Positions 28,833 through 63,602 of a DNA stretch of 64,000 nt are shown here, in pieces. Source of the DNA: an uncultured Microbacterium sp. GTDB lineage: Bacteria; Actinomycetota; Actinomycetes; Actinomycetales; Microbacteriaceae. Made by a program: the position numbers and the translations under genes. The notes beneath the pieces were generated by a model, which did not search any database, was not told where the DNA came from, and was given only the letters and a program-made list of their open reading frames with translations. The stretch spans positions 84,154-148,153 of the forward strand of contig NZ_CAURGG010000009.1 in the NCBI RefSeq assembly GCF_963524805.1. Direction: 5' to 3'. Within the stretch, counting starts at the first letter, position 1. Every line of letters begins with the position of its first letter.

Positions 28833-29001
28833 GTGCGTCCTTCCGACAGGTGACGATCGACCTTCAGTGTCGCATCGACGCACGTCCCTCAGGCCGGATG
28901 CAGGCCGCCCGCTTCGCCCGTGAGACGACAACTGCACGTCGAGACTGTGGGGTTTGCCCACGGTCTCGACGTGCAGATGTCGTCTCAGCGGAAAAGAGAG
29001 G

Positions 29002-34057: not shown

Positions 34058-34120
34058 CGTCGACTTGTCGTATATGTCGGCGCAGCGCGGCGTGTCGCCG
34101 ACATATACGACAAGTCGACG
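34058..34120. repeat. Perfect 25-bp-arm palindrome (REP-like)
   Basis: CGTCGACTTGTCGTATATGTCGGCG-N13-CGCCGACATATACGACAAGTCGACG. Confidence 0.85.
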
Positions 34121-35526: not shown

Positions 35527-35624
35527 CCGCACAGGGTATCCGCGCCCCGCCCCTGGTTCGTCCGTCGTCTACGCACGGGTGGCGCCGGGTTTTGCGTACA
35601 CGGGTGACGAACGAAGCAGAAGGG

Positions 35625-44538: not shown

Positions 44539-44704
44539 ACGACGATCGTACGGTCTCGCCCAGTTCGCCCGCATGGGGCCCATGCCGTACACTGGAGCAT
44601 GCAGTTGAAGTCTGCATTCTTTTGCCGTGCCCGGCGTTCGGGCCAGCTCCCTCTCGTACAGGTTGTGGTGGAAGACTGTGGGCATCCCGAGGCCGTCGGC
44701 CTCT

Positions 44705-44777
<73 letters not shown>

Positions 44778-44822
44778 CGCGTCAGCCGAAGCTGACACAT
44801 GGAAGGTATTCAGGTGGGTTCG

Positions 44823-45083
44823 ATGGTCCAAGAGGAGCCGAGGGGCGAGGTCGTCCCCAGTGGCGCACCCCGCGAGAAGAAGCCCAACGTCTTCGCTCGC
44901 ATCGCCCTGTTCATCCGTCAGGTGCTCGCAGAGCTGCGCAAGGTCGTCACACCGACCCGCCAGGAGCTCATCAAGTACACGGGTGTCGTGCTCGGCTTCG
45001 TCGTCGTGATGATGGCGCTGGTCTACGGACTGGATCTGCTGTTCGTCTGGGTGACGACCGTCGTCTTCGGCGTTCCCGCCTGA
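44823..45083 (+). CDS. secE: Preprotein translocase subunit SecE
   Basis: FIRQVLAELRKVVTPTRQEL followed by a TM helix. Confidence 0.95.
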   Translation: MVQEEPRGEVVPSGAPREKKPNVFARIALFIRQVLAELRKVVTPTRQELIKYTGVVLGFVVVMMALVYGLDLLFVWVTTVVFGVPA

Positions 45084-45148
45084 CCCCCTGAGTTGCACCG
45101 CGGGGCGGGTCCTCGGATCCGGCGCCCCCGAAACGGAAGAGAACGCAA

Positions 45149-46288
45149 TTGTCTGAAAGATATGTCGACGACGCCGACTGGGCGACCGCTGCCGAGCAGT
45201 CCTCGGAGGATGACGAGGCCCAAGAGGGCAACATCCTCGCCGAAGAGGACCGCGCGAACACGCCGGCCGAGCACCTCGCGGTGCACATCGTCGACGACGA
45301 GGCCGACGGCCTCGAGGATTCCGACGACATCGACATCGACGACCCGGAGGCGGACGCGATCGTGAACGACGCTCTGAACATCGACCGCACCGACGAGGCG
45401 GAGGCCGCCGCGGAGGTGCTCACCGACTCGCTGGCCGAGGAGGAGGCGGAGTACGCCGCCGAGCACGCCGACGACGTGACCCCCTACGACGGTCCCGACA
45501 TCAACGGCGACGAGGACGAGCCGGTTCTCGACGATGAATTCGTCGCCGAGGTGGATGCCGCCGCCGGCGTCGTCGACGAGGTCGAGGCCTCGGTCGACCC
45601 GGCCGACGCCGCGACGCCCCCCGCCGACCTCGACGCCGCAGACGACGAGGACGCCGAAGAGGCGGAAGAGGACCCGTACGAGGCGTTCCGCGCCGAACTG
45701 CGCACGCTGCCCGGCAAGTGGTACGTCATCCACTCGTACGCCGGCTTCGAGCGCAAGGTGAAGGCGAACATCGAGCAGCGCAAGTCGACGCTCGAGGTGG
45801 AAGAGGACATCTACCAGATCGAGGTCCCGATGGAGGACGTCGTTGAGATCAAGAACGGCCAGCGCAAGATGGTCACGCGCGTCCGGATCCCCGGTTACGT
45901 GCTCGTTCGCATGGAGCTCAACGAGGACACCTGGTCGGTCGTTCGTCACACCCCCGGCGTCACCGGCTTCGTGGGCAACGCGCACAACCCGACGCCCCTG
46001 CGCTTCGAGGAGTCCTTCAACATGCTGAAGTCCCTCGTCGAGGTGAAGGAAGTCGCTCCGGCCAAGGGTGCGGCCACCAAGGGCGGCCACGCTGTCGCGC
46101 GCAGCATCCCGGCAGAGGTGGACTTCGAGGTCGGCGAGACCATCACGATCAAGGAAGGCTCGTTCGCGGGCCTGCCCGGCACGATCAGCGAGATCAAGCC
46201 CGAGAGCGGCAAGCTCACGGTGCTGGTGTCGCTCTTCGAGCGCGAGACCCCGGTCGAGCTGTCGTTCGACCAGGTCACGAAGCTCTAG
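45149..46288 (+). CDS. nusG: Transcription factor NusG with long acidic N-terminal extension
   Basis: [30 protein letters not shown] domain, [13 protein letters not shown] start. Confidence 0.95.
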
Positions 46289-46300
46289 CAGCATCCGTTC

Positions 46301-46335
46301 ACGAAAGCGCCCCGTCAGTGACGGGGCGCTTTCGT
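46301..46335 (+). terminator. Terminator hairpin after nusG
   Basis: ACGAAAGCGCCCCGTCA / TGACGGGGCGCTTTCGT. Confidence 0.8.
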
Positions 46336-46366
46336 CGTTGCGGCCGAGGTCGGGCGCGGCTGCGTT

Positions 46367-46424
46367 GATGTACACGATGACGGATGCCGGAGACCCGACG
46401 CGTCCGCAATCGTGCACATCTCCG
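46367..46424. repeat. Palindromic repeat family 1, left copy
   Basis: Hairpin GATGTACACGATGACGGA...TCCGCAATCGTGCACATC; its reverse complement matches 47370-47427 at 47/58 positions, ungapped (manual count). Confidence 0.85.
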
Positions 46425-46531
46425 CTCCTTCACGCGCTGTCGCCTCCTCCCCAGCGGTTCAGCCCGCGCGCGGCATCCCCGTCGCACGCGGGACGCGAGC
46501 GATGCACCCCGCGGAGCGGGAGCCTGCCGGG

Positions 46532-47362
46532 ATGGGATACGTGAGGGATGCCGTCGTCGCAGCGGGCGGAGTGGCCCGCGTCGCCACGCTGAGAGCTGAC
46601 GGGCTGCCGCGCCGCGCGATCGCGCAGGCAGTTTCGGTGCAGGCGCTGATCCGCCCGCGCAACGGCTGGGTTGCACTGCCGGACGCCGATCCTCTGCTCG
46701 TGGCGGCCGCGCGCGCCGGGGTCGTGCTCTCCTGCATCACGCAGGCCGAACGGCTCGGGCTCTGGGTGTTCAGTGACGGGGCGGTCCACGTCGCGGCCCC
46801 GCAGCATCGGCATGTCGGCGAGGTCAAGACCGGCACTCGGGTGCATTGGTCCCGCCCACTCGTGCCGAGGCATCCCGATGCTCTCATCGACCCCATCGAG
46901 AACGTCCTGGCGGCGGTTGCGAGCTGCCAGCCCCACGAACGGGCGCTCGCCGTCTGGGAATCGGCATTGCGGCACACGCTCGTGACGCGAGAATCGATGA
47001 GAAGGATGCCGCTGCCCGCGGTGGCGCGCTCGCTGCTGGAGAGCTGCTCGCTGCATTCGGACTCCGGGCTCGAGACGTTCATACCGGTACGCCTCCGGTT
47101 CCTCCGCCTGCAGATCCGTCAGCAGGTGTGGCTCGCGGGGCATCCGGTCGATTTCCTCATCGGCGACCGCCTCGTGCTTCAGATCGATGGCGGACACCAC
47201 GTCGGGTCCCAGCGGCGCAGCGACATCGCCCACGACGCGCAGCTGACGCTCATGGGCTACCACGTGATCCGCATCGACTACGTGCAGGTCATGACGGGCT
47301 GGCCGGATGTGCACGATGTGATCGTGCGCGCCGTCGCGCAGGGACTTCACCGGGCGGCGTGA
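46532..47362 (+). CDS. AbiEi-like N-terminus plus DUF559/Vsr-like endonuclease domain protein
   Basis: N-terminal GGVAR...L...G......A....LIRPRNGW; SDSGLET; C-terminal QQV.LAGH.VDFLIG.RLVLQIDG.HH....R..D...D..L...GY.VIR. Confidence 0.8.
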   Translation: MGYVRDAVVAAGGVARVATLRADGLPRRAIAQAVSVQALIRPRNGWVALPDADPLLVAAARAGVVLSCITQAERLGLWVFSDGAVHVAAPQHRHVGEVKTGTRVHWSRPLVPRHPDALIDPIENVLAAVASCQPHERALAVWESALRHTLVTRESMRRMPLPAVARSLLESCSLHSDSGLETFIPVRLRFLRLQIRQQVWLAGHPVDFLIGDRLVLQIDGGHHVGSQRRSDIAHDAQLTLMGYHVIRIDYVQVMTGWPDVHDVIVRAVAQGLHRAA

Positions 47363-47369
47363 GGAATGA

Positions 47370-47431
47370 CGGAGTTGTGCACGATGACGGAAGACTCGGC
47401 CCTGCGGCATCCGTCATTGTGCACATCTCCG
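47370..47431. repeat. Palindromic repeat family 1, right copy
   Basis: CGGAGTTGTGCACGATGACGGA...TCCGTCATTGTGCACATCTCCG, starting 8 bp after the stop codon. Confidence 0.85.
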
Positions 47432-47597
47432 TGATCCTGCCCGCGGGAGTCCGGGTGGAGCAGGCCGGGAGTAACGGGAAGCTGATCGGGTAGACTAGAG
47501 AGGTTGCGCCCATCGCGCGACGAAACCCCACCGCGTCCAGGGCTTGCCTGGTTCGCGGAAGCGCGCCCGGATCGGGCGCTCGAAACGAAGGAACACA

Positions 47598-48029
47598 ATG
47601 GCACCGAAGAAAAGGGTGACCGGGCTGATCAAGCTGCAGATCAAGGCAGGTGCGGCCAACCCCGCACCGCCCATCGGTCCGGCACTGGGTCAGCACGGCG
47701 TCAACATCATGGAGTTCTGCAAGGCGTACAACGCCGCGACGGAGGCCCAGCGCGGCAACGTCATCCCCGTGGAGATCACCGTCTACGAGGACCGCAGCTT
47801 CACGTTCATCCTCAAGACGCCCCCGGCGGCCGAGCTGATCAAGAAGGCAGCCGGCGTGTCGAAGGGCTCGTCGACCCCGCACACGACCAAGGTGGCCAAG
47901 CTCACCAAGGCGCAGGTGCGCGAGATCGCCGAGGTCAAGCAGCCCGACCTGAACGCGAATGACATCGAGGCCGCCTCGAAGATCATCGCCGGCACCGCCC
48001 GCTCCATGGGCATCACGGTTGAGGACTGA
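47598..48029 (+). CDS. rplK: 50S ribosomal protein L11
   Basis: [32 protein letters not shown]. Confidence 0.98.
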
Positions 48030-48043
48030 GGGGGATAACGACC

Positions 48044-48733
48044 ATGGCTACCAAGTCCAAGGCCTACCAGGCCGCCGCCGCGAAGATCGCGGCTGACAAG
48101 TTCTACACGCCCACCGAGGCCGTCGCGCTGGCGAAGCAGACCGGCTCGGCGAAGTTCGACTCGACCGTCGAGGTCGCGCTCAAGCTCGCCGTCGATCCCC
48201 GCAAGGCGGACCAGATGGTGCGCGGCACCGTCATCCTGCCCCACGGCACGGGCAAGACCGCTCGCGTCATCGTGTTCGCGACGGGTCCGGCCGCCGAGGC
48301 CGCGATCGCCGCGGGCGCAGACGAGGTCGGTGGCGCCGAGCTCATCCAGCGCGTCGCCGACGGCTGGACCAACTTCGACGCCGCCGTGTCGACCCCTGAG
48401 CTCATGGGCCAGGTCGGTCGCCTCGGAAAGGTGCTGGGTCCGCGTGGCCTGATGCCGAACCCGAAGACCGGCACCGTGACCCCCAACCCGGCCAAGGCCG
48501 TCGAGGAGATCAAGGGCGGAAAGATCGAGTTCCGCGTCGACAAGCACGCCAACGTGCACTTCGTCGTGGGCAAGGCGTCCTTCTCGGAGGACCAGCTCGA
48601 CGAGAACCTCAAGGCTGCGCTCGAGGAGATCATCCGCCTCAAGCCGTCCAGCTCGAAGGGTCGCTACATCCAGAAGGGCGCGGTCTCGACCACGTTCGGC
48701 CCCGGCATCCCGCTGGATGTCAACGCGCTCTGA
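48044..48733 (+). CDS. rplA: 50S ribosomal protein L1
   Basis: [33 protein letters not shown]. Confidence 0.98.
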
Positions 48734-48774
48734 GCATTCTGTGGTCGAGTAGCGCGAAGCGCATCGAGATCCGC

Positions 48775-48808
48775 GAAAGGGGCTCCGCCGGAAGGCGGGG
48801 CCCCTTTC
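48775..48808 (+). terminator. Terminator hairpin after rplA
   Basis: GAAAGGGGCTCCGCC...GGCGGGGCCCCTTTC. Confidence 0.7.
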
Positions 48809-48944
48809 CGTGCGCGGGGCCCGCTGGCCCCGCGCGAGGAAACGAAACGTAACCCGATGCGCCTCGGACACTGAGGGCATGCTGTACTGGAGGGTCCTGC
48901 CCGGTGAGACCGGGCCGAAATCCCCCCCCAGGAGCAACACAGCC

Positions 48945-49751
48945 ATGTCACGCCGTACCCGTTTCGCCACGCTCGCCGCCCTCACCGCCTCCGCAGCCCT
49001 CGTCCTCGCGGGCTGCAGCGGCTCCTCGGCGCCTGCGTCCTCTTCCGCCGACGACGATCTCGGGCTGGTCTCGGCCGGTACCCTCACCGTCGCGACCGAG
49101 GGCACGTATCGCCCGTTCAGCTTCCACGACGAGACCGGCGAGCTCGTCGGCTTCGACGTCGAGATCGCCGAGGCCGTCGCCGACAAGCTCGACCTGGAGG
49201 TGAAGTTCCAGGAGACGCAGTGGGACGCGATCTTCGCGGGGCTCGAGGCCGGACGCTTCGACCTCATCGCGAACCAGGTGTCGATCAACCCCGAGCGCGA
49301 GGAGAAGTACCTCTTCAGCGCGCCGTACACCGTCTCTCCGGGCGTCATCGTCGTTCCCGAGGACGACGACTCGATCTCGAGCTTCGCCGACCTGGCCGGA
49401 AAGACCACCGCCCAGTCGCTCACCAGCAACTGGTACGAGCTCGCTCAGGACAGCGGCGCCACCGTCGAGGCCGTGGAGGGCTGGGCGCAGGCTGTCGCGC
49501 TGCTCACGCAGGGACGGGTCGATGCCACCATCAACGACGAGCTGACCTTCCTGGACTACGAGAAGACGGACGGCCCGACGGGACTGAAGATCGCCGCGGA
49601 GACCGATGACCCCGCCAGCAGCGCCTTCGCGCTGACGAAGGACAAGCAGGCCCTCGTCGATGCGATCGACGAGGCGCTGTCCGAGCTGCGCGACGAGGGC
49701 GTGCTCGCCGAGATCAGCGAGAAGTACTTCGGAGCCGACGTCACGTCGTAG
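48945..49751 (+). CDS. Polar amino-acid ABC substrate-binding lipoprotein (cystine-type)
   Basis: Lipobox LAGC; TEGTYRPF, GFDVEIA, ANQV, QSLTSN. Confidence 0.88.
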   Translation: MSRRTRFATLAALTASAALVLAGCSGSSAPASSSADDDLGLVSAGTLTVATEGTYRPFSFHDETGELVGFDVEIAEAVADKLDLEVKFQETQWDAIFAGLEAGRFDLIANQVSINPEREEKYLFSAPYTVSPGVIVVPEDDDSISSFADLAGKTTAQSLTSNWYELAQDSGATVEAVEGWAQAVALLTQGRVDATINDELTFLDYEKTDGPTGLKIAAETDDPASSAFALTKDKQALVDAIDEALSELRDEGVLAEISEKYFGADVTS

Positions 49752-49806
49752 CCCGGACGATTCCGGCCGCCGCCTCGGGCGGTGGTCGACACGGTGAGGA
49801 GGGCGC

Positions 49807-50472
49807 ATGAACGAGACCTGGACGCTGGTCGTCGAATCGTTCTGGCCGCTGCTGTGGGCCGGCCTTCGCGGCACCATTCCGCTCGCACTGGCCTCTTTCG
49901 CGATCGGGCTCGTGCTGGCTCTCGGCGTGGCGCTGATGCGCATCTCGTCGAATCGGGTGCTGTCGAACATCGCCCGCTTCTACATCTCGGTGATCCGGGG
50001 CACGCCGCTGCTGGTCCAGCTGTTCGTGATCTTCTACGGCCTGCCGTCGCTGGGCATCGTGGTGGACCCGTGGCCCGCGGCGATCATCGCGTTCTCGCTG
50101 AACGTGGGCGGCTATGCGGCGGAGATCATCCGCGCCGCGATCCTGTCCGTTCCCAAGGGGCAGTGGGAGGCCGGTCACACCGTCGGGCTCTCGCACACCC
50201 GGACGCTGACCCGCATCATCCTGCCGCAGGCCGCTCGAGTCTCCGTACCTCCTCTGTCGAACACGTTCATCTCGCTCGTCAAGGACACCTCGCTCGCCTC
50301 GCTCATCCTGGTCACCGAGCTGTTCCGCCAGGCGCAGATCATCGCGGCGTTCACCTACGAGTTCATGACGATCTATCTGGAGGCGGCGTTCATTTACTGG
50401 ATGTTCTGCCTGGTGCTCTCGGCCGGACAGAGCGCGCTGGAACGGAGGCTCGACCGCTATGTCGCCCATTGA
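49807..50472 (+). CDS. Amino-acid ABC permease
   Basis: [34 protein letters not shown]. Confidence 0.92.
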
Positions 50473-51277
50473 CACGCCCGGCTCCGACCCGCTCGCCCCA
50501 CCGGTGGCGGCCTCCGGAGAGCTCCTGCTGCGGGTGACGGGCCTGACGAAGAGCTTCGGCGCAACGCCGGTGCTCAAGGGAGTGGACTTCGAGGTGCGCC
50601 GCGGCGAGGTGGTGTGCCTCATCGGCCCGAGCGGATCGGGCAAGACCACGGTGCTGCGCACGCTCAACGGACTCGAGACACCCGACGGCGGCACGATCGA
50701 ATTCGCGGATGCCGCACCCGTCGACTTCGCGAGGCCGCCGACCAAGGCACAGCGCATCGCGTTGCGCGACAGGTCTGCGATGGTGTTCCAGCAGCACAAC
50801 CTGTTCCCGCACCTGACAGTGCTCCAGAACGTGATCGAGGGTCCCGTCCGCGCCCACCGGGTCCCGAAGGCCGCGGCGATCGCCCGGGCCGAGGAGCTTC
50901 TCGAACGGGTGGGCCTGACCGAGAAGCGCGACGCGTTCCCGTTCGAGCTGTCCGGCGGTCAGCAGCAGCGGGTCGGCATCGTGCGTGCTCTCGCGCTGCA
51001 GCCTGATCTGCTCCTGTTCGACGAGCCCACGAGTGCGCTCGACCCCGAACTGGTCGGGGAGGTGCTGGTCGTGCTGAAGGAGCTCGCCGATGACGGGTGG
51101 ACGATGGTCATCGTCACGCACGAGCTCGCCTTCGCCCGGGAGGTGGCCGACGAGGTGCTCTTCTTCGACGACGGCGTGATCCTCGAGCGCGGGGCGCCGC
51201 AGGACCTGCTGGTCAATCCGCAGCACGAGCGCACGCGGCGCTTCCTGGACCGCATCCTGCGGCCCTTCGAAGGCTGA
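50459..51277 (+). CDS. Amino-acid ABC ATP-binding protein
   Basis: [31 protein letters not shown]. Confidence 0.93.
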
Positions 51278-51279
51278 GC

Positions 51280-51549
51280 TCAGCCCCGTACCTCGAAGCC
51301 GTGCGCGCCGGTGGGAGCGGCATCCGTCACCATGGCCGTCTCGACGCTCGCGCCGGGTGGTCCCTGCGCCATCCAGGCCAGCACTTCGTCGACCTGCGCG
51401 TCGGTGCCTTCGATCTCGGCTTCCACGCTGCCGTCACGGAGGTTGCGCACCCAGCCGCTCGCCCCCGCTTCGTCGGCGACCATGCGCAGCGTGTAGCGGT
51501 AGCCGACCCCCTGCACCATGCCGTTCACCCTCACGTGGACGCGCTTCAT
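51280..51549 (-). CDS. Acylphosphatase
   Basis: G.VQGVGYR, GWVRNL.DGSVE, GPP.A.V. Confidence 0.92.
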   Translation of the reverse strand: MKRVHVRVNGMVQGVGYRYTLRMVADEAGASGWVRNLRDGSVEAEIEGTDAQVDEVLAWMAQGPPGASVETAMVTDAAPTGAHGFEVRG

Positions 51550-51608
51550 GGGTCCATCGTGCCGGGAAGGCCGTGCGAAGGCCAGGCGGGCGATGCCAGG
51601 ATGCCGAC

Positions 51609-51962
51609 ATGGGAACCGTCGATGAGTACCTGAACGAACTCGACCCCGACGACCGCGCGGCGATCGAGCGGGTCTACCGCCTCGCGCACGGCGAAGTGCC
51701 CGATTCCGAGCAGGGCAAGGGCTATGGGATGGCCGCGCTCATCTACCAGGGAAAGCCGCTGTTATCGGTGATGCGGGCCAAGAAGCACATCGGCATCTAC
51801 CCGTTCAGTCCGGATGCCGTCACCTCGGTCGCCGCCCAGGTGCAGGCGGTGCCCGGCAGCGGTCTGGACAAGGGGACGATCCGCTTCCAGCCCGAACACC
51901 CGCTGCCGGACGAGGTGATCCTCGCCCTCGTCCGCTTCCGCCGCGATCAGATCGACCGCTGA
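51609..51962 (+). CDS. DUF1801/YdhG-like protein
   Basis: TVDEYL..L, YGM....Y.GKP, KKHIGIYPFS, KGTIRF....PLP. Confidence 0.8.
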   Translation: MGTVDEYLNELDPDDRAAIERVYRLAHGEVPDSEQGKGYGMAALIYQGKPLLSVMRAKKHIGIYPFSPDAVTSVAAQVQAVPGSGLDKGTIRFQPEHPLPDEVILALVRFRRDQIDR

Positions 51963-51980
51963 CCTGCTTGCGGCGGGGGC

Positions 51981-52637
51981 TCAGTGCGGCAGGACCAGGC
52001 TCACCCCCATCAGTATCATGACGACGGCGATCACCGCGTCGAGGATGCGCCATGCCCGGGGAGTGCTCAGCCATCTGCCGAGATAGCGCGCGCCGAAGGC
52101 GAGTCCGAAGAACCAGACCACGCTGGCGAGCATCGCCCCGGCGGCGAAGATCCACCGGTCTTCGCCGTGTGTGTTCGCCACCGTTCCGAGAAGGAACACC
52201 GTGTCGAGGTACACGTGCGGATTCAGCCAGGTCAGCGCGAGGCAGGTCAGTGCGACCGGAAGCGCCTTGGTCGCCGTCAGCATGGCGAGAGGCGCCGTGC
52301 CGTGCGGCGCGGCCGAAGAGGCGTCGGCGCCCTCGGCCTCGAGCGTGTGCCCGGACGGCCGCCAGGCGCGCCGTGCCGCCAGCAGGCCGTAGCCGACGAG
52401 GAAGACCGCGCCCGCCCAGCGCACCACGTCGACCAGCCACGGCACCGCGTGCAGCACCAGGCCGACGCCCGAGACACCCAGGGCGATCAGTGCCGCGTCC
52501 GAGACGGCGCAGATGGCCGCGACGAGCACGACGTGCTCGCGCCGCAGCCCCTGGCGCAGCACGAAGAGGTTCTGCGCGCCGATCGCGATGATGAGCGAAA
52601 GGCCGAGACCGATGCCGGCCAGGAGTGGGGAGATCAC
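51981..52637 (-). CDS. lysE: LysE/ArgO amino-acid exporter
   Basis: LIIAIGAQN.FVLRQG, TWLNPHVYLDT. Confidence 0.9.
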   Translation of the reverse strand: MISPLLAGIGLGLSLIIAIGAQNLFVLRQGLRREHVVLVAAICAVSDAALIALGVSGVGLVLHAVPWLVDVVRWAGAVFLVGYGLLAARRAWRPSGHTLEAEGADASSAAPHGTAPLAMLTATKALPVALTCLALTWLNPHVYLDTVFLLGTVANTHGEDRWIFAAGAMLASVVWFFGLAFGARYLGRWLSTPRAWRILDAVIAVVMILMGVSLVLPH

Positions 52638-52705
52638 GCTTCGACGCTAGGCGGCTCAGGATATTCAGTCCAGTTCATGATTCTCACGTTGCATTAGCAT
52701 GACTG

Positions 52706-53632
52706 ATGATGCGCATCCCACCGGAGCTGGCCGACACCCTCGCCGTGGTGGTCGATGAGGGCACGCTGGATGCGGCCGCGCGCCGCCTGCACATCACACC
52801 TTCGGCGGTGAGCCAGCGGATCAAGACGCTCGAGCAGCAGCTCGGCCGCGTTCTGCTGGTGCGCTCCAAGCCGGCGCGGCTCACGGAGGCCGGCACCGCC
52901 GTGGTGCGCATGGCACGGCAGATGGCGCTGCTCGAGCATGACGCCCTCGCGCAGCTGGGTGGTGACGGCGAGGAGGGTGCGCGCACGCCCGTACCCTTGG
53001 CGGTGAATGCCGACTCGCTCGCGACCTGGTTCCTCGAGCCGCTCGCGCGCCTGTCGCAGCGGCATCCGGTCGTGTTCGAATTGCACCGCGACGACCAGGA
53101 CTTCACCGCAGCGCTGCTCGAATCCGGCACCGTCATGGGGGCGGTCACCTCCCGCGCGACGGCGGTTGCCGGGTGCCGGGTCAGCGGCCTCGGGGCCATG
53201 CGCTACGAGGCCGTGGCCACCCCCGCGTTCGTGGAGCGGTGGCTGCCCGGGCCCGGGTCGCTCACCGAGCTCGGCAGCGCGCCGCTCGTGGACTTCGACC
53301 GTCGTGACGATCTGCAGACCCGCTGGCTGGCTGTGTGCGGCATCGACGGCGCGCGGGTCGGCCGGCACTTCGTACCCGCGTCGAACGACTTCGCCGCGGC
53401 CGTCCGTCACGGGCTGGGCTGGGGGCTTCTGCCGCGGTTCCAGTCGCAAGAGGCGTTGGATGCCGGAACCCTGGTGCTGCTGGGCGGACCGCCGATCGAC
53501 GTGCCCCTTTACTGGCAGCAGTGGAATCTGCGCTCGCCCCTGCTGGATGCGATCGCCGATGAGATCGTGGGGGAGGGGCGCCGCGTGCTGGCCCCGCTCG
53601 AGGAAGCGGACGGACCGGTCAGTCGTCGCTGA
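52706..53632 (+). CDS. lysG: LysR regulator, ArgP/LysG type
   Basis: HITPSAVSQRIK.LE, AVNADSLATW, VPLYWQQW; divergent from lysE. Confidence 0.88.
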   Translation: MMRIPPELADTLAVVVDEGTLDAAARRLHITPSAVSQRIKTLEQQLGRVLLVRSKPARLTEAGTAVVRMARQMALLEHDALAQLGGDGEEGARTPVPLAVNADSLATWFLEPLARLSQRHPVVFELHRDDQDFTAALLESGTVMGAVTSRATAVAGCRVSGLGAMRYEAVATPAFVERWLPGPGSLTELGSAPLVDFDRRDDLQTRWLAVCGIDGARVGRHFVPASNDFAAAVRHGLGWGLLPRFQSQEALDAGTLVLLGGPPIDVPLYWQQWNLRSPLLDAIADEIVGEGRRVLAPLEEADGPVSRR

Positions 53633-54650
53633 CGCGGAGCACGATCTTCCCCCGCGTGTGACCCTTCTCCAGCTCGGTGTGCGCTGCGGCGGCATCCGCC
53701 AGATCGAAGACGCGGTCGATGTAGACCTGCACCGCTCCGGAGTCCAGCAGCCGGCCGACGGTGGCCAGCGCGCCTCCGTCGGGGATGACCTTGTAACCGG
53801 TGGCGCGGACCGCGACCGCCGCTGCTGCCTCGGCGTACCCGGGCCAGGAGCCCGAGGGAACCAGGATGTAGAGGCCGCCCGGCCGGATGACCGTGAGCGA
53901 GCGCTCACCGGTCCTGTCGTGGACGTTGCCCACGAGGTCGATGACGACGTCGACCTCGGCCACGACGTCCTCGAATCGGGTGGTCGCGTAGTCGATCACG
54001 ACCGAGGCGCCCAGTTCCCGCAGCCAGGACGCGTTGCGGCCGGATGCGGTCACGGTCACATGCGCACCGAAGTAGGCGGCGAACTGGACGGCGAAATGGC
54101 CCACCCCGCCGCTGCCGGCGTGGATGAGGATCCGCTGCCCCTCGTGGGCGTGCGCCGTCTCGACCACCAGACCCCACGCGGTGAGGGCGGCCAGCGGAAC
54201 ACCCGCCGCTTCGACGTGCGACAGCGAGGCGGGCTTGCGCGCCACGGACTGCGAGGGAACGACGGCGTATTCGGCGTAGCTGCCGCCCGACCGGGGGAAC
54301 GGCACCATGCCGTAGACGGCGGTACCCGGGGGCAGCGGGTGGGACTCATAGGGCGCCCGCACGACGATGCCGCTGAAATCGAATCCCAGCGCCGCCGGGT
54401 ACGAGGCGATGGCCGCAGAAACGCCCGCACCGCTGCGGGTCTTCGCGTCGATGGGGTTGATGCCCGCTGCGACGACGCGCACGAGGAGTTCGCTCAGGAT
54501 CGGAGTGGGGACCTCGACCGACGACGAGTGAAGGGAATCGGGGGACCCGGTGGCGTCTATCACCGCCGCCCGCATCGTCTCGGGGGGATCTGCGACCGCG
54601 ACCGGGATGGACTCGGGAACGGACGCGGGTCGCAGCGGCCGGAATCTCAT
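53619..54650 (-). CDS. NADP-dependent quinone oxidoreductase (MDR family)
   Basis: AGINPID, GSYAEY, PLAALTAW, HAGSGGVG, GHTRGKIVL. Confidence 0.88.
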   Translation of the reverse strand: MRFRPLRPASVPESIPVAVADPPETMRAAVIDATGSPDSLHSSSVEVPTPILSELLVRVVAAGINPIDAKTRSGAGVSAAIASYPAALGFDFSGIVVRAPYESHPLPPGTAVYGMVPFPRSGGSYAEYAVVPSQSVARKPASLSHVEAAGVPLAALTAWGLVVETAHAHEGQRILIHAGSGGVGHFAVQFAAYFGAHVTVTASGRNASWLRELGASVVIDYATTRFEDVVAEVDVVIDLVGNVHDRTGERSLTVIRPGGLYILVPSGSWPGYAEAAAAVAVRATGYKVIPDGGALATVGRLLDSGAVQVYIDRVFDLADAAAAHTELEKGHTRGKIVLRVSDD

Positions 54651-54799
54651 GGGTCGCTCCTTCCGGGTGCATGTCGGCTTCGGCAGCACTCGTTTGCTGG
54701 TGGACCCAGTCAAGCCTGACTATGTCTCGCCCGTGTTACGCGGGTGCTACCGGCTGAACAAGCCGGGCCGGAAGTTTCGTGTGGCCGCCGAGCACGGGA

Positions 54800-55258
54800 T
54801 CAGGGCGTCTCGCCGGCGGTGAGCGCGTGCAGCAGTCGCGTGAGATCGCTGATCTGCTCGACCGACCACCCCTCCAGGGTGTCCAGAAGGACGCTCTCCT
54901 GCGGAGCCCGGGCGGCCGCCAGGCGCTCCAGGCCGCTTGCCGTCGGGGAGAGCAGGCTCGATCTGCCGTCGGCAGGATCCGGTGTGCGGGTGACCAGGCC
55001 CAGCTCCTCGAGTTCGCGCACCGTGCGACTGATCTGGCCCTTGTCGGCCATGAGCGACTCGGCGAGGCTGGACAGGGTCACGCTCTCGCGGCGCACGATC
55101 GTGGTGAAGACCTTGTATGCGCCGGGAAGCATGCCCGGGCTCACCCGCTGCGCGTTGTCAGCGAGTACCCGCCGCATGCGGCTGATCAGCTCGCCGAACT
55201 CGGACTCGAGGGCGCGCACCGCGTCGGTGCGCGCTCCTCGTGTTTCGTCGTCCATCAC
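54800..55258 (-). CDS. MarR-family regulator
   Basis: LAESL..DKGQISRTVRELEELGLV.R.PDP.DGR. Confidence 0.9.
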   Translation of the reverse strand: MMDDETRGARTDAVRALESEFGELISRMRRVLADNAQRVSPGMLPGAYKVFTTIVRRESVTLSSLAESLMADKGQISRTVRELEELGLVTRTPDPADGRSSLLSPTASGLERLAAARAPQESVLLDTLEGWSVEQISDLTRLLHALTAGETP

Positions 55259-55267
55259 CGTCGGAGA

Positions 55268-56986
55268 CTACCGGTTCGCGCGGCGCGAGTCGGACGAAGC
55301 GGACTCGCGGGTCGCGGCATCCGGAATTCGATTCGTGCCCGTCCCGGCGAGCACCTCCATGCCCTCCGGCACCGAGACGGTGGCCAGGTCCGCTTCACTT
55401 GCGCGCATGCGCTCGCTGGTGGTCATGCGCGTCAGCGGGGTGTTCGGCAGGAAGACGATCGCGATGAGGCTCACCACGGCGAAGGGGACCGCGATGAGGA
55501 ACGAGTGCGAGATCCCCTGGGCGTAGATGTCCTCGAAGATGACCCGCAGCGATTCGGGCATGGCGGAGACCTGGGGCAGCGTGCCCGACGACAGCGTGTC
55601 GGCCCACTTCTGCGCATTCGCGCCGAGGCCCGCGATCGCGGTGGCGATGTCGTCCTTGCCCGAGGAGACCAGTTCGGTCACCCGTGCCGCGAGGGCGGCG
55701 CCCATCAGGGAGACGCCGATCGTGCCGCCGAGGCTGCGGAAGAACGTGACGCCCGAGCTGGCGACGCCGATCTCGCTCGGGTTCGAGGTGTTCTGCACGA
55801 CCAGGACGAGGTTCTGCATCGTCATGCCGACGCCGGCGCCCAGAAGGAACATGTACAGCGACACGAGCGCGAAGTTCGTGTCGTAGTGGATCGTCGAGAG
55901 CAGGTACGACCCGGCGATCAGCAGCGCCCCGCCGAGGATGAGGAACGGCTTCCATGTGCCGAGTCGCGTGATGAGCGCGCCGACGCCGATCGAGGCCAGC
56001 AGCAGCCCCGCGATCATCGGGATCGTCATGAGACCTGCCTGGGTCGGCGTGGCGCCCCGGGCGAGCTGCATGAACTGGCTGAGGAACACCGACGCGCCGA
56101 ACATCGCGATGCCGGTGGCGATCGAGGCGATCACCGCCAGGGTGAACGTGCGGTTGCGGAACATCGAGAGCGGGATGAGCGGCTCCTTCGCGCGCAGCTC
56201 GGTGACGATGAACAGGATCGTGCCGAGCACCGCGCCGCCGACCATCAGGAGCGTCTCGATGCTCCACCACTCGAACGAGTCGCCGGCGAGGGTCACCCAG
56301 ATCAGCAGCAGCGAGACGGCTGCCGAGAGGAACACGATGCCGAAGTAGTCGATCGACACCTTGCGCTTGGCGCGGGGAACGACGTGCAGGGTGCGCTGCA
56401 GGATGATGAGCGCGAGCACCGCGAAGGGAAGGGCGACGTAGAAGTTCCAGCGCCACCCGAGCGTGTCGGTGATGACGCCGCCCAGCAGCGGGCCGCCGAT
56501 CGTGGCGACGGCCATCACGGCGCCGAACAGGCCCATGTAGCGGCCGCGCTCACGCGGGCTGATGATGTCGGCCATCAGCACCTGGCTGAGGGCGGCCAGA
56601 CCGCCGGCGCCGATGCCCTGCACCGCGCGGAAGGCGATGAGCATCTCCGGGCTCTGCGAGAAGCCCGCGGCTGCGGTGGCGAGCACGAAGATGGCGATCG
56701 CGATCTGGATGAGCAGCTTGCGGTTGAACAGGTCGGCGAGCTTGCCCCAGATCGGTGTGGAGATCGCCGTGGTCAGCAGGGTCGCGGTCACGACCCAGGT
56801 GAAGGAAGCCTGCGTGCCGCCCAGATCGTGGATGATGACCGGCAGCGAGGTGGAGACGACGGTCGAGGCGAGCATCGAGACGAACATGCCGAGCAGCAGC
56901 CCGGACAGGGCCTCGAGCACCTGGCGGTGCGTCATCTTCGGCGCCTGGAGTTCTTCGGTGGCGTGAGGGGTTGGGGGCGTGGACAT
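55268..56986 (-). CDS. MFS drug:H+ antiporter (EmrB/QacA type)
   Basis: WGKLADLFNRK, RAVQGIGAGG, PRERGRY, GPLLGG...GWRW.F; about 14 TM segments. Confidence 0.92.
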   Translation of the reverse strand: MSTPPTPHATEELQAPKMTHRQVLEALSGLLLGMFVSMLASTVVSTSLPVIIHDLGGTQASFTWVVTATLLTTAISTPIWGKLADLFNRKLLIQIAIAIFVLATAAAGFSQSPEMLIAFRAVQGIGAGGLAALSQVLMADIISPRERGRYMGLFGAVMAVATIGGPLLGGVITDTLGWRWNFYVALPFAVLALIILQRTLHVVPRAKRKVSIDYFGIVFLSAAVSLLLIWVTLAGDSFEWWSIETLLMVGGAVLGTILFIVTELRAKEPLIPLSMFRNRTFTLAVIASIATGIAMFGASVFLSQFMQLARGATPTQAGLMTIPMIAGLLLASIGVGALITRLGTWKPFLILGGALLIAGSYLLSTIHYDTNFALVSLYMFLLGAGVGMTMQNLVLVVQNTSNPSEIGVASSGVTFFRSLGGTIGVSLMGAALAARVTELVSSGKDDIATAIAGLGANAQKWADTLSSGTLPQVSAMPESLRVIFEDIYAQGISHSFLIAVPFAVVSLIAIVFLPNTPLTRMTTSERMRASEADLATVSVPEGMEVLAGTGTNRIPDAATRESASSDSRRANR

Positions 56987-57035
56987 GGCATCCTTCGGAG
57001 CGTGCGAACGGGGATGTCGGCAACGGCGGCGACTT

Positions 57036-57097
57036 GTTGATCTGAGTCAACTGTTGAACTAGGTCAACTATATAGGTAATGGTTGACGGGCGTCAAC
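57036..57097. promoter_or_regulatory. Three GTTGA-N6-TCAAC palindromes, probable MarR operators
   Basis: At 57036-57051, 57053-57068 and 57082-57097, upstream of the MFS-MarR operon. Confidence 0.75.
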
Positions 57098-57111
57098 TAT
57101 TCCCGTTCGGG

Positions 57112-57795
57112 TCAGTCTGCGAGGGCGAGGGCGCGGAAGGGCTCGCGCGGCGTGGGGCGCGGCATCCGCTGATCTTCGAGCGTTCGGCGGGACAGCATGG
57201 TGCGCCGGTGGAGTTCGTCGATCAAGGTCGTGGCCAGGCGCACCAGCGTGCCGATCTCGGCCTCGTCGCGATCGACCCAGGCGCACCGGGGCTCGTCGTC
57301 GACCGGGACGAAGCCGTCGTGCTCCTCCCAAGCAACGAGCGTGCGCTCGGCACCGAGGACATGCTGCTGCCACCACACCTGACGCAGATACGACCGGGGG
57401 ATGCTGCGCCACGACTTGTTGGTCGTCTTGATCTCGCAGAGGATCACGCGGCCCTCGGAGTCGATGACCACGCCGTCGGGGGTGGCGAGGTGCCGCTTCT
57501 CGACCTCGGCGTGGAACAGGGCGCTCGAGGGCAGGATGCCGTGGGTCGCGGCGACCCAGCGGGCGATCTCCGGCTCGCGGACGCGGCCGTGCGCGGTGTA
57601 CGCGTTGCCGGAGAACCCGGAGCCCATGAGCTTGGCGTCAGCGGCCTTGGCGATCGCGTTGGTCGAGGTCAGGCTCGCGACATCGGTCGCGGTGATCCCT
57701 CGCGAGCGCGCGCGCGTCCAGGCGACCCGATCGCGGGAGTCCGCGACGATCCGCGCGGCGAGCACGGGATGCATCGCGGCGAGTTCTGGGGTCAC
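57112..57795 (-). CDS. YqaJ/lambda-exonuclease-family nuclease
   Basis: W...R..GITATD, HG..REP, ATPDG, EIKT, Y..QV.WQ; GTG start 7 nt after TAGCCT. Confidence 0.85.
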   Translation of the reverse strand: MTPELAAMHPVLAARIVADSRDRVAWTRARSRGITATDVASLTSTNAIAKAADAKLMGSGFSGNAYTAHGRVREPEIARWVAATHGILPSSALFHAEVEKRHLATPDGVVIDSEGRVILCEIKTTNKSWRSIPRSYLRQVWWQQHVLGAERTLVAWEEHDGFVPVDDEPRCAWVDRDEAEIGTLVRLATTLIDELHRRTMLSRRTLEDQRMPRPTPREPFRALALAD

Positions 57796-57887
57796 GTGTT
57801 CGAGGCTAACCCCGCGGCGGGACATCGTGCGCCCGCGTCCTCGCGTGTCCGGGAGACGGCTGCCATGACGGCGAGGTCCCTTCGCGT

Positions 57888-57974
57888 TTGCGCGAGATCA
57901 CCCCGTGTTCGCGAAGTCACCCGCCGCCATCGCAGGGGGCGCGTGATCTCGCGAAGAACAGGTGATCTCGGGCG
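57888..57974. repeat. Palindromic repeat family 2, copy A
   Basis: Four CGCGAGATCACCC-like units (two forward, two reverse); 73/87 identical to the reverse complement of 62244-62330 (manual count). Confidence 0.9.
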
Positions 57975-58071
57975 TTGTGGGGACTCCTCCCCAACTACCC
58001 GAGTCGGCGGGAAGTCCGCTGATGCAAGGATCTGCACCGCGCACCGGAGAGGCGCGCGTCACGATTCTCAC

Positions 58072-59055
58072 GTGCGCAGCCTCCGCCTTGTCGAACTGAG
58101 GGACTCGGTCCGGACGCGAGAGCAGCTGCTCATCGACGGCTGGCCCGCGTGCGAACTGGATCGGACGGGTCCGGGCGCGAGCTTTCGACGCGTGCACCGT
58201 AATCGCTTCGTGTCGTCGGAGCTGTGGGCAGATCTCTGGCCCGAGTCCCGCCATCGGATCGAGCTGTGCGCTGCCGTTCAGGAGATGCGGGGCGGAGCCG
58301 GCGTCGCTTCACACCTCTCCGCCGCCGTCGCATGGGGGCTGCCGCTGTTCCGGCACGTTCCGCGCGAGGTCGAGTTCACGATCCACGGACGTCTGCGCGC
58401 CGCGACGCGGGCGGGAATCCGCCGACACCTCAACGCACTGGATCAATCCGATGTCGTCGTGATCGACGGCGTTCGATGCACCTCGCTCGAGCGGACGGTC
58501 TTCGATGTGGCGCGCGTATACCGGGCAGAGGTGGCCCTGGCGTGTATGGACGCAGCACTCAGGTCGATCTCGGTTGACGGTCAGAACTGGGATGCCGGTG
58601 CGCATGCGGCTTGGAAGGACCGGATGTCTGCGAGGGCACGCGAAAGCGCGGGCGCACGCGGCATCAAACAGGCGCGTCGGCTCATCGACATCGCTGACGG
58701 TCGCGCCCAGTTGCCCGGCGAGAGCGTGAGTCGCCTTCAACTTCTCCGCCTCGGATTCGCTCGGCCCGACCTGCAGGTGCCCGTCGCCGGTCCCGCGGGC
58801 CGGACCTACTGGGTGGACTTCAGGCTGGGCGATGTCGCGGCGTGGGGTGAGTTCGACGGCAAAGACAAGTACCTCGACGAAGCCATGCGCCGCGGCAAGA
58901 CCATCGAAGAAGTGGTGCTCGATGAGAAGAAGCGCGAGGACTGGATCCGAGGCACCACTCAGGGGCGCTTCGCTCGCTGGGGAGACGAGCACATCGGGAG
59001 CCCGCAGGCCCTTCGCGTCCGACTCGCTGCTTTCGGCATCCATCCTCCGCGTTGA
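58072..59055 (+). CDS. AbiEi-like protein with C-terminal PD-(D/E)XK/DUF559-like nuclease domain
   Basis: SHLSAA.AWGLP, TSLERTVFDVAR, D.AL, PGES.SR, P.LQV, VDF......GEFDG..KY, EK.REDWIR; GTG start 6 nt after CACGAT. Confidence 0.75.
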   Translation: MRSLRLVELRDSVRTREQLLIDGWPACELDRTGPGASFRRVHRNRFVSSELWADLWPESRHRIELCAAVQEMRGGAGVASHLSAAVAWGLPLFRHVPREVEFTIHGRLRAATRAGIRRHLNALDQSDVVVIDGVRCTSLERTVFDVARVYRAEVALACMDAALRSISVDGQNWDAGAHAAWKDRMSARARESAGARGIKQARRLIDIADGRAQLPGESVSRLQLLRLGFARPDLQVPVAGPAGRTYWVDFRLGDVAAWGEFDGKDKYLDEAMRRGKTIEEVVLDEKKREDWIRGTTQGRFARWGDEHIGSPQALRVRLAAFGIHPPR

Positions 59056-59057
59056 GC

Positions 59058-59142
59058 CGCGAGATCACCCGCTGTTCGCGAATCCGCACATTGCACACAG
59101 CGACAGTGGGTGATCTCGCGAACAGAGGGTGATCTCGCGAAA
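59058..59142. repeat. Palindromic repeat family 2, copy B
   Basis: CGCGAGATCACCCGCTGTTCGCG...GGGTGATCTCGCGAACAGAGGGTGATCTCGCG, 2 bp after the stop; aligns ungapped with copy C at 63/85. Confidence 0.9.
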
Positions 59143-59151
59143 GAGGCCGGG

Positions 59152-59553
59152 CTACAGCCCCGCGACTCCGGCCTCGGCGACCGAGTGGTCCTGCTCGCCC
59201 GAGCCGCCGCTGACACCCACGGCGCCGACGACGACTCCGTCGCGGACGAGGGGGATGCCGCCGGCGAAGATCGCGACCTTGCCGCCGTTCGTGTTCTGGA
59301 TGCCGAAGAACTGCTGGTTCGGCTGCGAGTTGTCTCCGAGGTCCTTCGTGGAGATGTCGAACGCCTTCGAGGTCCAGGCCTTGTTGATCGAGATGTTGAC
59401 GCTGCCGATCCAGGCGCCGTCCTGCCGGACATGGGCGACGAGATTGCCGCCCGAGTCGACCACGGCGATGTTCATCGGCTGACCGATCTCGGTCGCCTTC
59501 TTCTCGGCGGCGGCGATGACGCGACGGGCGTCTTCGAGGGTGACGGTGGACAT
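59152..59553 (-). CDS. GlcG/HbpS-family heme-binding protein
   Basis: IAVVDSGG, R.DGA, KAWT, FAGGIP, GAVGVSGG....D. Confidence 0.9.
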   Translation of the reverse strand: MSTVTLEDARRVIAAAEKKATEIGQPMNIAVVDSGGNLVAHVRQDGAWIGSVNISINKAWTSKAFDISTKDLGDNSQPNQQFFGIQNTNGGKVAIFAGGIPLVRDGVVVGAVGVSGGSGEQDHSVAEAGVAGL

Positions 59554-59593
59554 GGGTGTGCTCCTAGCGTGTTCGGTGTACTCGGGATGGGGT

Positions 59594-60814
59594 TCAGGCG
59601 GCGATGTAGCCGTTGGGGTTGAGGACGTACTTGGTCGCGGCCCCGGCGTCGAACTCGGCGTAGCCCCGGGGGGCGTCGTCGAGCGAGATGGCCTTGGCGT
59701 TGACGGCGGCGGCGATGTGCACCTTGTCGTGCAGGATCGCCATCATCAGCTGCCGGTTGTAGCGCATGACCGGGCACTGGCCGGTCGTGAACGACAGCGA
59801 CTTCGCCCACCCGGTGCCGAGGCTGATCGAGAGCGACCCGACTTTGGCGGCATCGTCGACGGCGCCCGGATCCCCGGTCACGTACAGACCCGGGATGCCG
59901 ACCGCCCCGCCAGCGGCAGTCACATCCATCAGCGAGTTCAGCACCGTCGCCGGCGCCTCCTTCGCGGACGCGCCGTGCCCTTCGCTGCGCGCTTCGAAGC
60001 CGACGGCGTCGACCGCGGCGTCGACCTCGGGTACGCCGAGCAGCTGCTCGAGCTGGTCAGGTACGGCGCCGGAGCCGACATTCACGGTCTCGCATCCGAA
60101 GCTGCGGGCCTGGGCGAGGCGGTCCTCGTTCAGGTCTCCGACGATGACGACGGCGGCGCCCAGGAGCTGCGCTCCCGCGGCGGCGGCAAGACCCACCGGC
60201 CCCGCGCCGGCGATGTAGACCGTGGAGCCGACGCCGACTCCGGCCGTGACCGCTCCGTGGAAGCCGGTCGGGAAGATGTCGGACAGCATCGCGAGGTCGA
60301 GGATCTTCTCCAGAGCCTGATCGCGGTCGGGGAAGCGCAGCAGATTCCAGTCCGCGTAGGGCACGAGGACGTACTCCGCCTGACCGCCCACCCAGCCGCC
60401 CATGTCGACGTAGCCGTAGGCGCTGCCGGGGCGGTCGGGGTTGACGTTGAGGCAGATGCCGGTCTTGCCCTCCTTGCAGTTGCGGCATCGCCCGCAGGAG
60501 ATGTTGAACGGCACCGAGACGATGTCGCCGACCCGGATGAACTCGACATCGGGGCCGACCTCGACCACCTCTCCGGTGATCTCGTGGCCGAGCACCAGCC
60601 CGGCGGGAGCCGTGGTGCGTCCGCGGACCATGTGCTGGTCGGAGCCGCAGATGTTCGTCGCCACGGTGCGCAGGATCGCGCCGTGGGGGATCTTGCGACC
60701 CACGTTGGCCGGGTTCACACCGGGGCCGTCGTGCAGTTCGAAGTCGGGGTAATCGGTGTCGATCACCTTCACGACTCCAGGCCCCTCATAGGCGACCGCT
60801 CTGTTTCCAGACAT
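59594..60814 (-). CDS. fdhA: Glutathione-independent formaldehyde dehydrogenase
   Basis: TNICGSDQHMVRGRT, GHEITG, CGRC..C....C, GGWVGGQAEY, LSDIFPTG, GIPGLY. Confidence 0.9.
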   Translation of the reverse strand: MSGNRAVAYEGPGVVKVIDTDYPDFELHDGPGVNPANVGRKIPHGAILRTVATNICGSDQHMVRGRTTAPAGLVLGHEITGEVVEVGPDVEFIRVGDIVSVPFNISCGRCRNCKEGKTGICLNVNPDRPGSAYGYVDMGGWVGGQAEYVLVPYADWNLLRFPDRDQALEKILDLAMLSDIFPTGFHGAVTAGVGVGSTVYIAGAGPVGLAAAAGAQLLGAAVVIVGDLNEDRLAQARSFGCETVNVGSGAVPDQLEQLLGVPEVDAAVDAVGFEARSEGHGASAKEAPATVLNSLMDVTAAGGAVGIPGLYVTGDPGAVDDAAKVGSLSISLGTGWAKSLSFTTGQCPVMRYNRQLMMAILHDKVHIAAAVNAKAISLDDAPRGYAEFDAGAATKYVLNPNGYIAA

Positions 60815-60942
60815 CTTCGTCCTCTCTCCCGACCCGTCGTACCGGCTCTCTTCGAGACTGTCTGGTTCGTTCGAGTGGGTCGATCGCTCCTCGGGGTCGT
60901 TGTGCCCACCCGAACGGGTAGCGGCGTCCCTAGGGTGGGGGG

Positions 60943-62232: not shown

Positions 62233-62243
62233 GCGAGCGGCCC

Positions 62244-62330
62244 TGCGCGAGATCACCCGCTGTCCGCGAGATGACACGCCCCGTGCGGCGGGGGAGGGTG
62301 ACCTCGCGAACACGGGGTGATCTCGCGCAA
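62244..62330. repeat. Palindromic repeat family 2, copy C (no adjacent nuclease gene)
   Basis: TGCGCGAGATCACCCGCTGTCCGCGAGATGAC...GTGACCTCGCGAACACGGGGTGATCTCGCGCAA. Confidence 0.9.
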
Positions 62331-62376
62331 GGGCGCGGGGAGGCGGCGGCGATTTTGCGCGGCGGCGGGCATCGCG

Positions 62377-63127: not shown

Positions 63128-63167
63128 TCAGGGCGCGGCTGACAGAAACCCAAGCAAGGAGAAAATC

Positions 63168-63554: not shown

Positions 63555-63568
63555 TCACTTCTTCACGA

Positions 63569-63601: not shown

Positions 63602-63602
63602 T

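Follow-up and report, generated by a model that had tools for sequence, protein, structure and literature searches.

A 64,000-nucleotide stretch of the genome of an uncultured Microbacterium sp. (G000:C9:84154-148153, where G000 is the present genome, 99.99% complete; the whole stretch is called the window below) carries two genes for predicted site-specific nucleases, each framed by palindromes of a family of its own. That this association of nuclease genes and palindromes is real and widespread is near certain from what was observed here and in other genomes. The private palindromes, together with a promoter motif that most such genes of the genome have in common with DNA-uptake genes, indicate a likely repeat-spreading system that would be on during DNA uptake. 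A previous reading of the window, here the original prediction, had described two such loci and likened them to repetitive extragenic palindromes (REPs) with their REP-associated tyrosine transposases (RAYTs); the genome holds 16, and the motif shared with competence genes was not part of that prediction.

Two putative nuclease genes and their private palindromes

The order of palindrome, spacer, nuclease-like gene and second palindrome described in the original prediction was confirmed at both loci. Locus 1 lies in the nusG-rplK gap and has a 107-bp spacer between palindrome and gene and 7 bp between stop codon and downstream palindrome; locus 2, with a yqaJ-type gene on one side and an HbpS-like gene on the other, has 98 and 2 bp, respectively. 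All four palindromes fold better than shuffled sequences (z-scores of -3.6, -6.3, -5.8, and -9.5). As had been claimed, the two repeat families, A and B, are unrelated, with no overlap between them, and the two proteins are divergent (20% identity). The features of the two loci are as follows.

46367..46424, no strand: family A palindrome, upstream copy (sequence, repeat model, folding)
46445..46482, + strand: weak copy of a two-box, DnaA-box-like leader motif, score 13.7, boxes at 46445-46454 and 46473-46482 (matrix scan)
46532..47362, + strand: nuclease gene 1, 276 aa, AbiEi-like module at residues 1-173 and Vsr/DUF559 domain at residues 176-272
47370..47431, no strand: family A palindrome, downstream copy (sequence, repeat model, folding)
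57888..57973, no strand: family B palindrome, upstream copy, in which a 9-bp site occurs four times, spaced 19 bp apart within each arm
57985..58021, + strand: two-box, DnaA-box-like leader motif, score 16.8, boxes at 57985-57994 and 58012-58021 (matrix scan)
58072..59055, + strand: nuclease gene 2, about 327 aa, of the gene 1 family, catalytic motif kept (profile, alignment)
59058..59142, no strand: family B palindrome, downstream copy (sequence, repeat model, folding)

The product of gene 1 matched the Pfam family DUF559 (E=1.5e-7), a Pfam search with the product of gene 2, for which a GTG start was inferred, gave no match, and an NCBIfam search returned no family for the nuclease genes. In an alignment-based predicted model of protein 1 (pLDDT 95), residues 1-173 aligned with the whole AbiEi antitoxin (6y8q; Z 10.4, root-mean-square deviation 4.1, 172 residues aligned) and residues 176-272 with the catalytic domain of I-Bth0305I (Z 12.8, root-mean-square deviation 2.0, 93 aligned), the latter also resembling NGO0050 (Z 12.6) and Vsr (Z 10.5). 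This predicted fold, AbiEi plus Vsr, agrees with the winged helix-turn-helix plus Vsr/PD-(D/E)XK-like protein that had been proposed, and databases usually label such proteins as Vsr, DUF559 or REase_MTES_1575 families, much as the original prediction said. Among 125 homologues, the catalytic residues were kept in 124 (E181), 125 (D207), 124 (E/Q217), and 117 (D219), and dN/dS was 0.12-0.23 in all nine close pairs. Protein 2 is a family member by profile and retains the catalytic motif. The genes are predicted to encode site-specific nucleases.

An iterated profile search of G000 recovered 18 open reading frames (ORFs), corresponding to 16 AbiEi-plus-Vsr/DUF559 loci, two of them frameshifted, with pairwise identities of 15-57% among paralogues (57% for the closest pair). 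Upstream and downstream flanks shared a repeat at >=28 bits at 11 of the 16 loci compared to 6 of 298 control ORFs, which places the pairing above chance. Palindromes of 14 families were modelled, two loci without a clear element being left out; the families comprise 132 copies in total with zero overlap, range from 1 to 26 copies each, and in 10 of the 14 cases extend beyond their own flanks. Family B is dispersed (14 copies); of family A, G000 has only the two flanking copies. The window contains solo palindromes from four families:

28921..28987, no strand: solo palindrome of the family (26 copies) that frames paralogue G000:C8:134871-135923
34058..34120, no strand: solo palindrome of the family (12 copies) that frames paralogue G000:C12:3024-3983
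35556..35616, no strand: solo palindrome of the family (20 copies) that frames frameshifted paralogue G000:C1:704701-705717
62246..62327, no strand: solo family B palindrome, 3' of a LuxR-family gene (repeat model)

Most copies are intergenic (122 of 132), 55 of 132 lie in gaps between convergent genes, a class that makes up 172 of 1498 gaps in the background, and for 90 of 132 a stop codon is no more than 50 nt away, the intergenic and orientation counts being approximate, since the gene caller was a crude one that missed part of the family genes. The downstream copy is inverted at both window loci, as the original prediction stated, but a fixed inverted orientation was rejected as a rule, since direct flanks are commoner than inverted ones (26 direct, 8 inverted, and 8 tied among 42 loci of the genus scoring >=40 bits). 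The largest contig, G000:C1, is palindrome-poor, with 5 copies compared to 27.7 expected when one locally clustered family is left out. It also carries a shorter, weakly related ORF (G000:C1:431923-432564; E 2.6e-4 to protein 2), seemingly without a nuclease domain.

In the phylum, the gene family was present in 35 of 81 genomes, a tally that includes two unpublished genomes not used further. Paired palindromes flanked 23 of 29 locus-1 relatives, 28 of 31 locus-2 relatives, and 36 of 63 loci of a mixed set (33 of 59 outside the genus), the mixed set being a subset of the matches from the 81-genome tally after 6 partial and 4 contig-edge rows were dropped. Homologues therefore mostly have paired flanks. 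A contig scan with a single protein found 2 loci, and a diverse alignment offered no usable stretch. Palindrome type tracked protein clade (Mantel rho 0.23 and 0.31). Among pairs from the locus-2 clade, the palindrome was the same in 86-93% of those above 60% protein identity and in 10-14% of those below it. Genome-wide repeat number likewise tracked the presence of the cognate gene. For one family, 8 of the 10 genomes that have the cognate clade gave five or more pattern matches, as did 3 of 91 others, and in two of those three a sister gene is framed by the same palindrome; G152, with a truncated cognate gene, has 3 matches to that family. The family B pattern gave 12 matches in G000 and zero in 89 of 100 congeners, and A-type matches were highest in G152 (11) and G012 (4), the only genomes among 60 tested with orthologues of at least 70% identity. 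Such pattern matches are not copy numbers and related genomes are not independent; the family A pattern missed the two copies of G000 itself, because both carry mismatches. Abundance across genomes is nevertheless the more telling evidence when compared to the match between clade and palindrome. These comparisons bear out the original prediction in its expectations of paired flanks, of co-phylogeny, and of repeat abundance that follows the gene.

Palindrome architecture and site occupancy

The top internal period was 18 or 19 bp in 7 of 13 families of this genome and in both genus sets, with a weaker peak at 19-20 bp outside the genus, and in each element with the 18-19 bp period a short site occurs four times, twice in each arm. 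Covariation between the arms exceeded all shuffles in one of six families (one with two subfamilies); in four of the six, variable positions were present without arm covariation, and one more was tied at the shuffle maximum. G-U pairs were not in excess on the transcribed strand (44 compared to 46 A-C in 51 elements). The periodicity, the lack of a G-U excess and the scarcity of covariation fit binding sites in double-stranded DNA better than hairpins of RNA or single-stranded DNA, and the palindromes look like four double-strand protein sites rather than hairpins constrained by pairing. As monomers, AbiEi and Rv2827c each recognise two or four inverted repeats, and neither binds the repeats of the other (PMC7319586). 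From the sequences, it is likely that the proteins bind their cognate palindromes.

These data bear on three other explanations of the palindromes. By the first, a RAYT-like mechanism would recognise the element in its folded form (hairpin or cruciform), as might arise in single-stranded DNA that is incoming or on the lagging strand, then excise and reinsert it. The strong hairpins, the REP-like positions with convergent-gene gaps favoured, the supply of single-stranded DNA by competence, and the nicking of mismatches by Vsr (PMC3239194) are consistent with this; it is improbable given that the arms lack covariation as described above, that the sites are direct repeats 18-19 bp apart, that AbiEi has a double-stranded DNA-binding fold, and that no HUH/Tyr chemistry is at hand for rejoining ends. 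By the second, the palindromes would be terminators or mRNA stabilisers and the protein a RAP-like RNA-processing enzyme, as might be expected from the copies near stop codons and from RAP-domain structures that score Z 7.7-9.6 against the model. This is very improbable, since selection on RNA structure was not supported by the G-U and covariation results, Rfam matched nothing except one tRNA in window 44000-64000, and one private family per paralogue would be left unexplained. By the third, also very improbable, the genes would be orphan type IV antitoxins or stand-alone defence nucleases and the palindromes merely autoregulatory operators. PADLOC AbiEi models do match up to 7 of 14 paralogues and AbiEi binds inverted repeats in promoters (PMC7319586), but a search of G000 for PF08843 returned no AbiEii toxin, the genes stand alone, and copies also lie 3' of the gene and, genome-wide, behind unrelated genes.

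The loci also differ in how they are occupied between species. The upstream context was common to 26 of 32 locus-2 relatives, and 33 locus-1 relatives fell into 12 contexts. When 23 nusG-rplK gaps were inspected by eye, 2 held a gene of this clade, 10 were empty, 4 held a solo palindrome, 3 held another paralogue, on the opposite strand and with different palindromes, 3 held other genes, and 1 held a tandem array. The yqaJ-rplJ gap of G006 contains a truncated cassette of another family, and that of G020 contains one decayed palindrome where the window has 57888-62328. The cassette at a single site can differ from species to species. Frameshifted or truncated genes were found at 2 of the 16 loci of this genome and also in G006, G152, and G007. 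The genes are mostly sedentary, rarely moving and more often replaced or broken in place. On contigs from conspecific soil metagenomes, both cassettes are in place at ~98-99% identity; joints that skip locus 1 were rejected as empty sites, having short sides (23-36 letters) and probably coming from other organisms. Matching records numbered zero in a phage collection and two, both partial, in a plasmid collection.

It is very unlikely that the cassette is an autonomous insertion sequence with miniature inverted-repeat transposable elements (MITEs), transposing as a unit with the palindromes as its ends. The filled and empty nusG-rplK and yqaJ-rplJ gaps are what such an element would leave, and the genes have a low GC content at third codon positions (all 14 tested below the 14th percentile). 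The genes are, however, single-copy and divergent, even the closest pair being far from identical, and they keep conserved contexts; near-identical copies, a fixed orientation of the ends and target duplications, by which an insertion sequence with MITEs would be recognised, were not seen.

Two further observations concern the palindromes. Tandem expansions in steps of ~19 or 38 bp lie beside nuclease genes at L207 (G006:C34), L160, L163, and G000:C13:1972-2117, and their step size suggests slippage or nick-driven duplication of the site unit. In the window, 57888-62328 contains three B palindromes around the nuclease, HbpS-like, alcohol/aldehyde dehydrogenase, and LuxR genes, and an acetyltransferase-like ORF is also framed by a B pair (G000:C4:164833-166015); gene groups bounded by B palindromes are possible cargo units.

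The leader motif and competence genes

The leader of these genes, 3' of the upstream palindrome and 5' of the start codon, contains a motif of two boxes spaced 27-28 bp apart, each similar to a DnaA box. A two-box matrix trained on 60 loci of other genomes, with a cut-off score of >=16, detected the motif at 13 of the 16 loci of G000 and at 14 of 3122 other called genes, and controls with the wrong spacing gave 5 and 7 hits. The 19 proteins behind 20 high-scoring sites were checked against Pfam, 3 of them without a match; the names found were recA, ComEA, ComEC, YraN, ComM-type chelatase, ComF-type, TadA/T2SSE ATPase, DUF4192, DUF222-HNH, GIY-YIG, Ogt, WXG100, FtsK, M23, DUF6459, and DnaB. A second ssb was seen by eye among the targets. 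Examples in G000 are as follows.

C1:818875: recA
C1:309145: comEA
C1:194435: yraN-comM
C6:138915: comF
C5:182305: tadA-type gene

In the genus, the nuclease leaders thus share their upstream motif with comEA-comEC, comF, yraN-comM, tad, recA, and ssb, and from this gene set the motif probably marks a competence and recombination regulon. The comEA/EC and tad genes are transformation machinery in Micrococcus luteus (PMC4322843), and the regulation of DNA uptake in Actinobacteria is described as unknown (PMC4322843, PMC8467076). Outside the genus, single boxes were found in 59 leaders 11 times on the forward strand compared to 0.9 in shuffled sequences, and 9 times compared to 0.8 on the reverse strand. 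All 9 leaders of G032, 7 of the 12 of G108, and all three competence genes sampled in each of these two genomes carry a loose box core, which is mostly absent from leaders and competence genes in G117, G086, and G084.

At L181 and L182, upstream of recA and of a DUF222-HNH gene, the two boxes are followed by a second motif, which resembles the mycobacterial PafBC promoter. A -10-like hexamer was seen by eye 6 nt 5' of the start codon at both loci (window 46520-46532 and 58060-58072) and in many homologues, a position so near the start codon that it suggests leaderless transcripts.

A candidate mechanism and its relation to known systems

Given the private palindromes and the leader motif, we propose a mechanism to which we assign slightly better than an even chance. 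Each nuclease would bind its own palindrome family in double-stranded DNA through the AbiEi module, monomers filling four sites, two per arm and 18-19 bp apart, with the arms inverted, and the Vsr domains would meet across the palindrome centre as in I-Bth0305I. The paired Vsr domains would nick or break the palindromes, and RecA-dependent recombinational repair would then seed new copies and exchange cassettes. Expression would accompany that of DNA-uptake and recombination genes and, if confined to competent cells, would ensure that RecA, ComM, SSB, and incoming DNA are at hand for repair while self-damage is limited; copies would persist mainly in neutral gaps 3' of stop codons. That cutting causes the spread, and that the nucleases are co-induced with competence genes, we infer from the sequences.

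As the main alternative, the same features could be those of a domesticated competence accessory, in which nucleases and palindromes serve the host as lineage-specific marks or recombination hot spots in transformation (Chi-like, or like DNA uptake sequences) and copies build up through selection or a bias in uptake instead of being spread by the nuclease. The leader motif common to the competence genes, the purifying selection on the genes, their sedentary habit (the shared upstream context of locus-2 relatives), and the lack of phage records beside only two plasmid records are all consistent with this. It is nonetheless unlikely, since family identity turns over rapidly at one site, with different paralogues in the nusG-rplK gap, and since frameshifted or truncated genes and families of 1-26 copies better fit a selfish or semi-selfish element.

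Several results weigh against spread by cutting and repair and are gathered here. A clear palindrome pair was not seen at 5 of the 16 loci of this genome and at 26 of 59 loci outside the genus, and four families, A among them, lack solo copies in G000. The leader motif is weak at locus 1 and absent from 2 of the 16 loci, and outside the genus the two-box matrix scored 4 of 60 leaders on the forward strand and 4 of 60 on the reverse, so that transfer of the matrix beyond the genus was rejected. G007 is an orphan with 6 matches to a palindrome family whose cognate gene was not found, and one A copy occurs in G151, outside the genomes with close orthologues. Co-phylogeny and co-occurrence overstate independence because gene and repeat are linked and the genomes are kin; the match between clade and palindrome could be explained by linkage alone. 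No strain-level empty site or excision joint was found in the conspecific metagenome contigs, and no target duplications were seen by eye in four families. Finally, insertion at non-homologous sites would need host functions, because a Vsr nuclease cannot itself join DNA.

The mechanism proposed above resembles several known systems in part. Like REPIN/RAYT systems, REPtrons, and TIRtrons (PMC3116915, PMC3733652), it would pair single-copy, sedentary enzyme genes with their own dispersed extragenic palindromes, with several distinct pairs per genome and co-evolution. The likeness to REP/RAYT drawn in the original prediction therefore stood for layout and evolution and probably not for chemistry, as nothing in the elements points to selection for base pairing. 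The enzyme is HUH/Y1 there and AbiEi plus Vsr-type PD-(D/E)XK here; copies number hundreds there, whereas here a genome has as many as 16 loci, of 1-26 copies each; and the elements here have an 18-19 bp site periodicity without pairing covariation, a promoter motif shared with competence genes, and hosts in the phylum Actinomycetota. REPtron membership was rejected on the enzyme, as no Y1/HUH transposase was found in the genome (no PF01797 match), in agreement with the transposase-free loci of the original prediction, and no shared GTAG or CGTC end tag was seen by eye at the ends of the consensus lines of 13 families. By analogy, the system would be a RAYT-like partnership built on restriction-type chemistry.

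I-Bth0305I and the EDxHD homing endonucleases (PMC3239194; PDB 3r3p) likewise have a Vsr-fold C-terminal nuclease behind an N-terminal DNA-binding region, and the dimeric Vsr-fold enzyme cuts a long pseudo-palindrome, which the putative target here also is. In contrast to them, our genes have no intron or intein and interrupt no host gene, and insertion does not destroy the putative target, which is found at the gene's flanks and dispersed; identity as an intron or intein homing endonuclease is ruled out by the intergenic position between intact genes. With the type IV antitoxins AbiEi and Rv2827c (PMC7319586; PDB 6y8q, 1zel), the whole two-domain fold is shared over residues 1-173, but here it is fused to a conserved nuclease and lacks a toxin partner, and the sites flank the gene and are spread over the genome. 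A type IV toxin-antitoxin AbiE pair was excluded at both loci, the neighbours being nusG/rplK and yqaJ/HbpS-like genes with no adjacent AbiEii. The catalytic domain is shared with Vsr, DUF559, and REase_MTES_1575 (PMC3424549; PF04480, PF18741), but neither window locus has a methyltransferase partner, and the available text of that source mentions neither repeats nor a link to competence.

No description of the gene-palindrome association or of the promoter motif was found in the literature covered by our search, which lay outside supplements and most subscription journals, and the association is not mentioned in the available main text of PMC2267715, PMC8467076, PMC12378983, PMC3424549, PMC12306157, or PMC12089995. 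The system is thus apparently undescribed in print; new here are the leader motif shared with competence genes, the palindromes that look like four double-strand sites, and the mostly sedentary genes with exchange of cassettes at single sites. A single dedicated enzyme class is known for REP-type repeats, and for further palindrome families none has been described (PMC3733652). The nucleases would be a second, unrelated candidate class in a phylum barely covered by those surveys, and a large family of proteins that at present carry the label 'DUF559' or 'AbiEi antitoxin' would gain a testable role. The promoter motif connects this family to DNA uptake, and an element that rides on transformation would be unusual, as most of the mobile DNA in reviewed examples blocks it (PMC12378983). 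Taken across the phylum, these could be a class of repeat-spreading elements of Actinobacteria unrelated to transposases, fast-diversifying AbiEi-Vsr nucleases with private four-site palindromes that are wired to competence and use natural transformation to home, convert, and seed repeats, a tentative proposal that we consider somewhat more apt to fail than to hold. If true, many orphan families of extragenic palindromes in actinobacteria would find an explanation, and thousands of natural protein-DNA specificity pairs would become available. As the predicted target is written beside each gene, the specificity rules are directly testable.

Two minor observations lie apart from these subjects. 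Genome-wide, 2094 copies of the octamer GGATGCCG and 2149 of its complement were counted, compared to about 315 and 345 expected, and it is possibly an uptake-like or highly iterated palindrome (HIP)-like signal; a literature search on the octamer returned nothing relevant. The nusG ORF (window 45149-46288) has a long acidic N-terminal extension.

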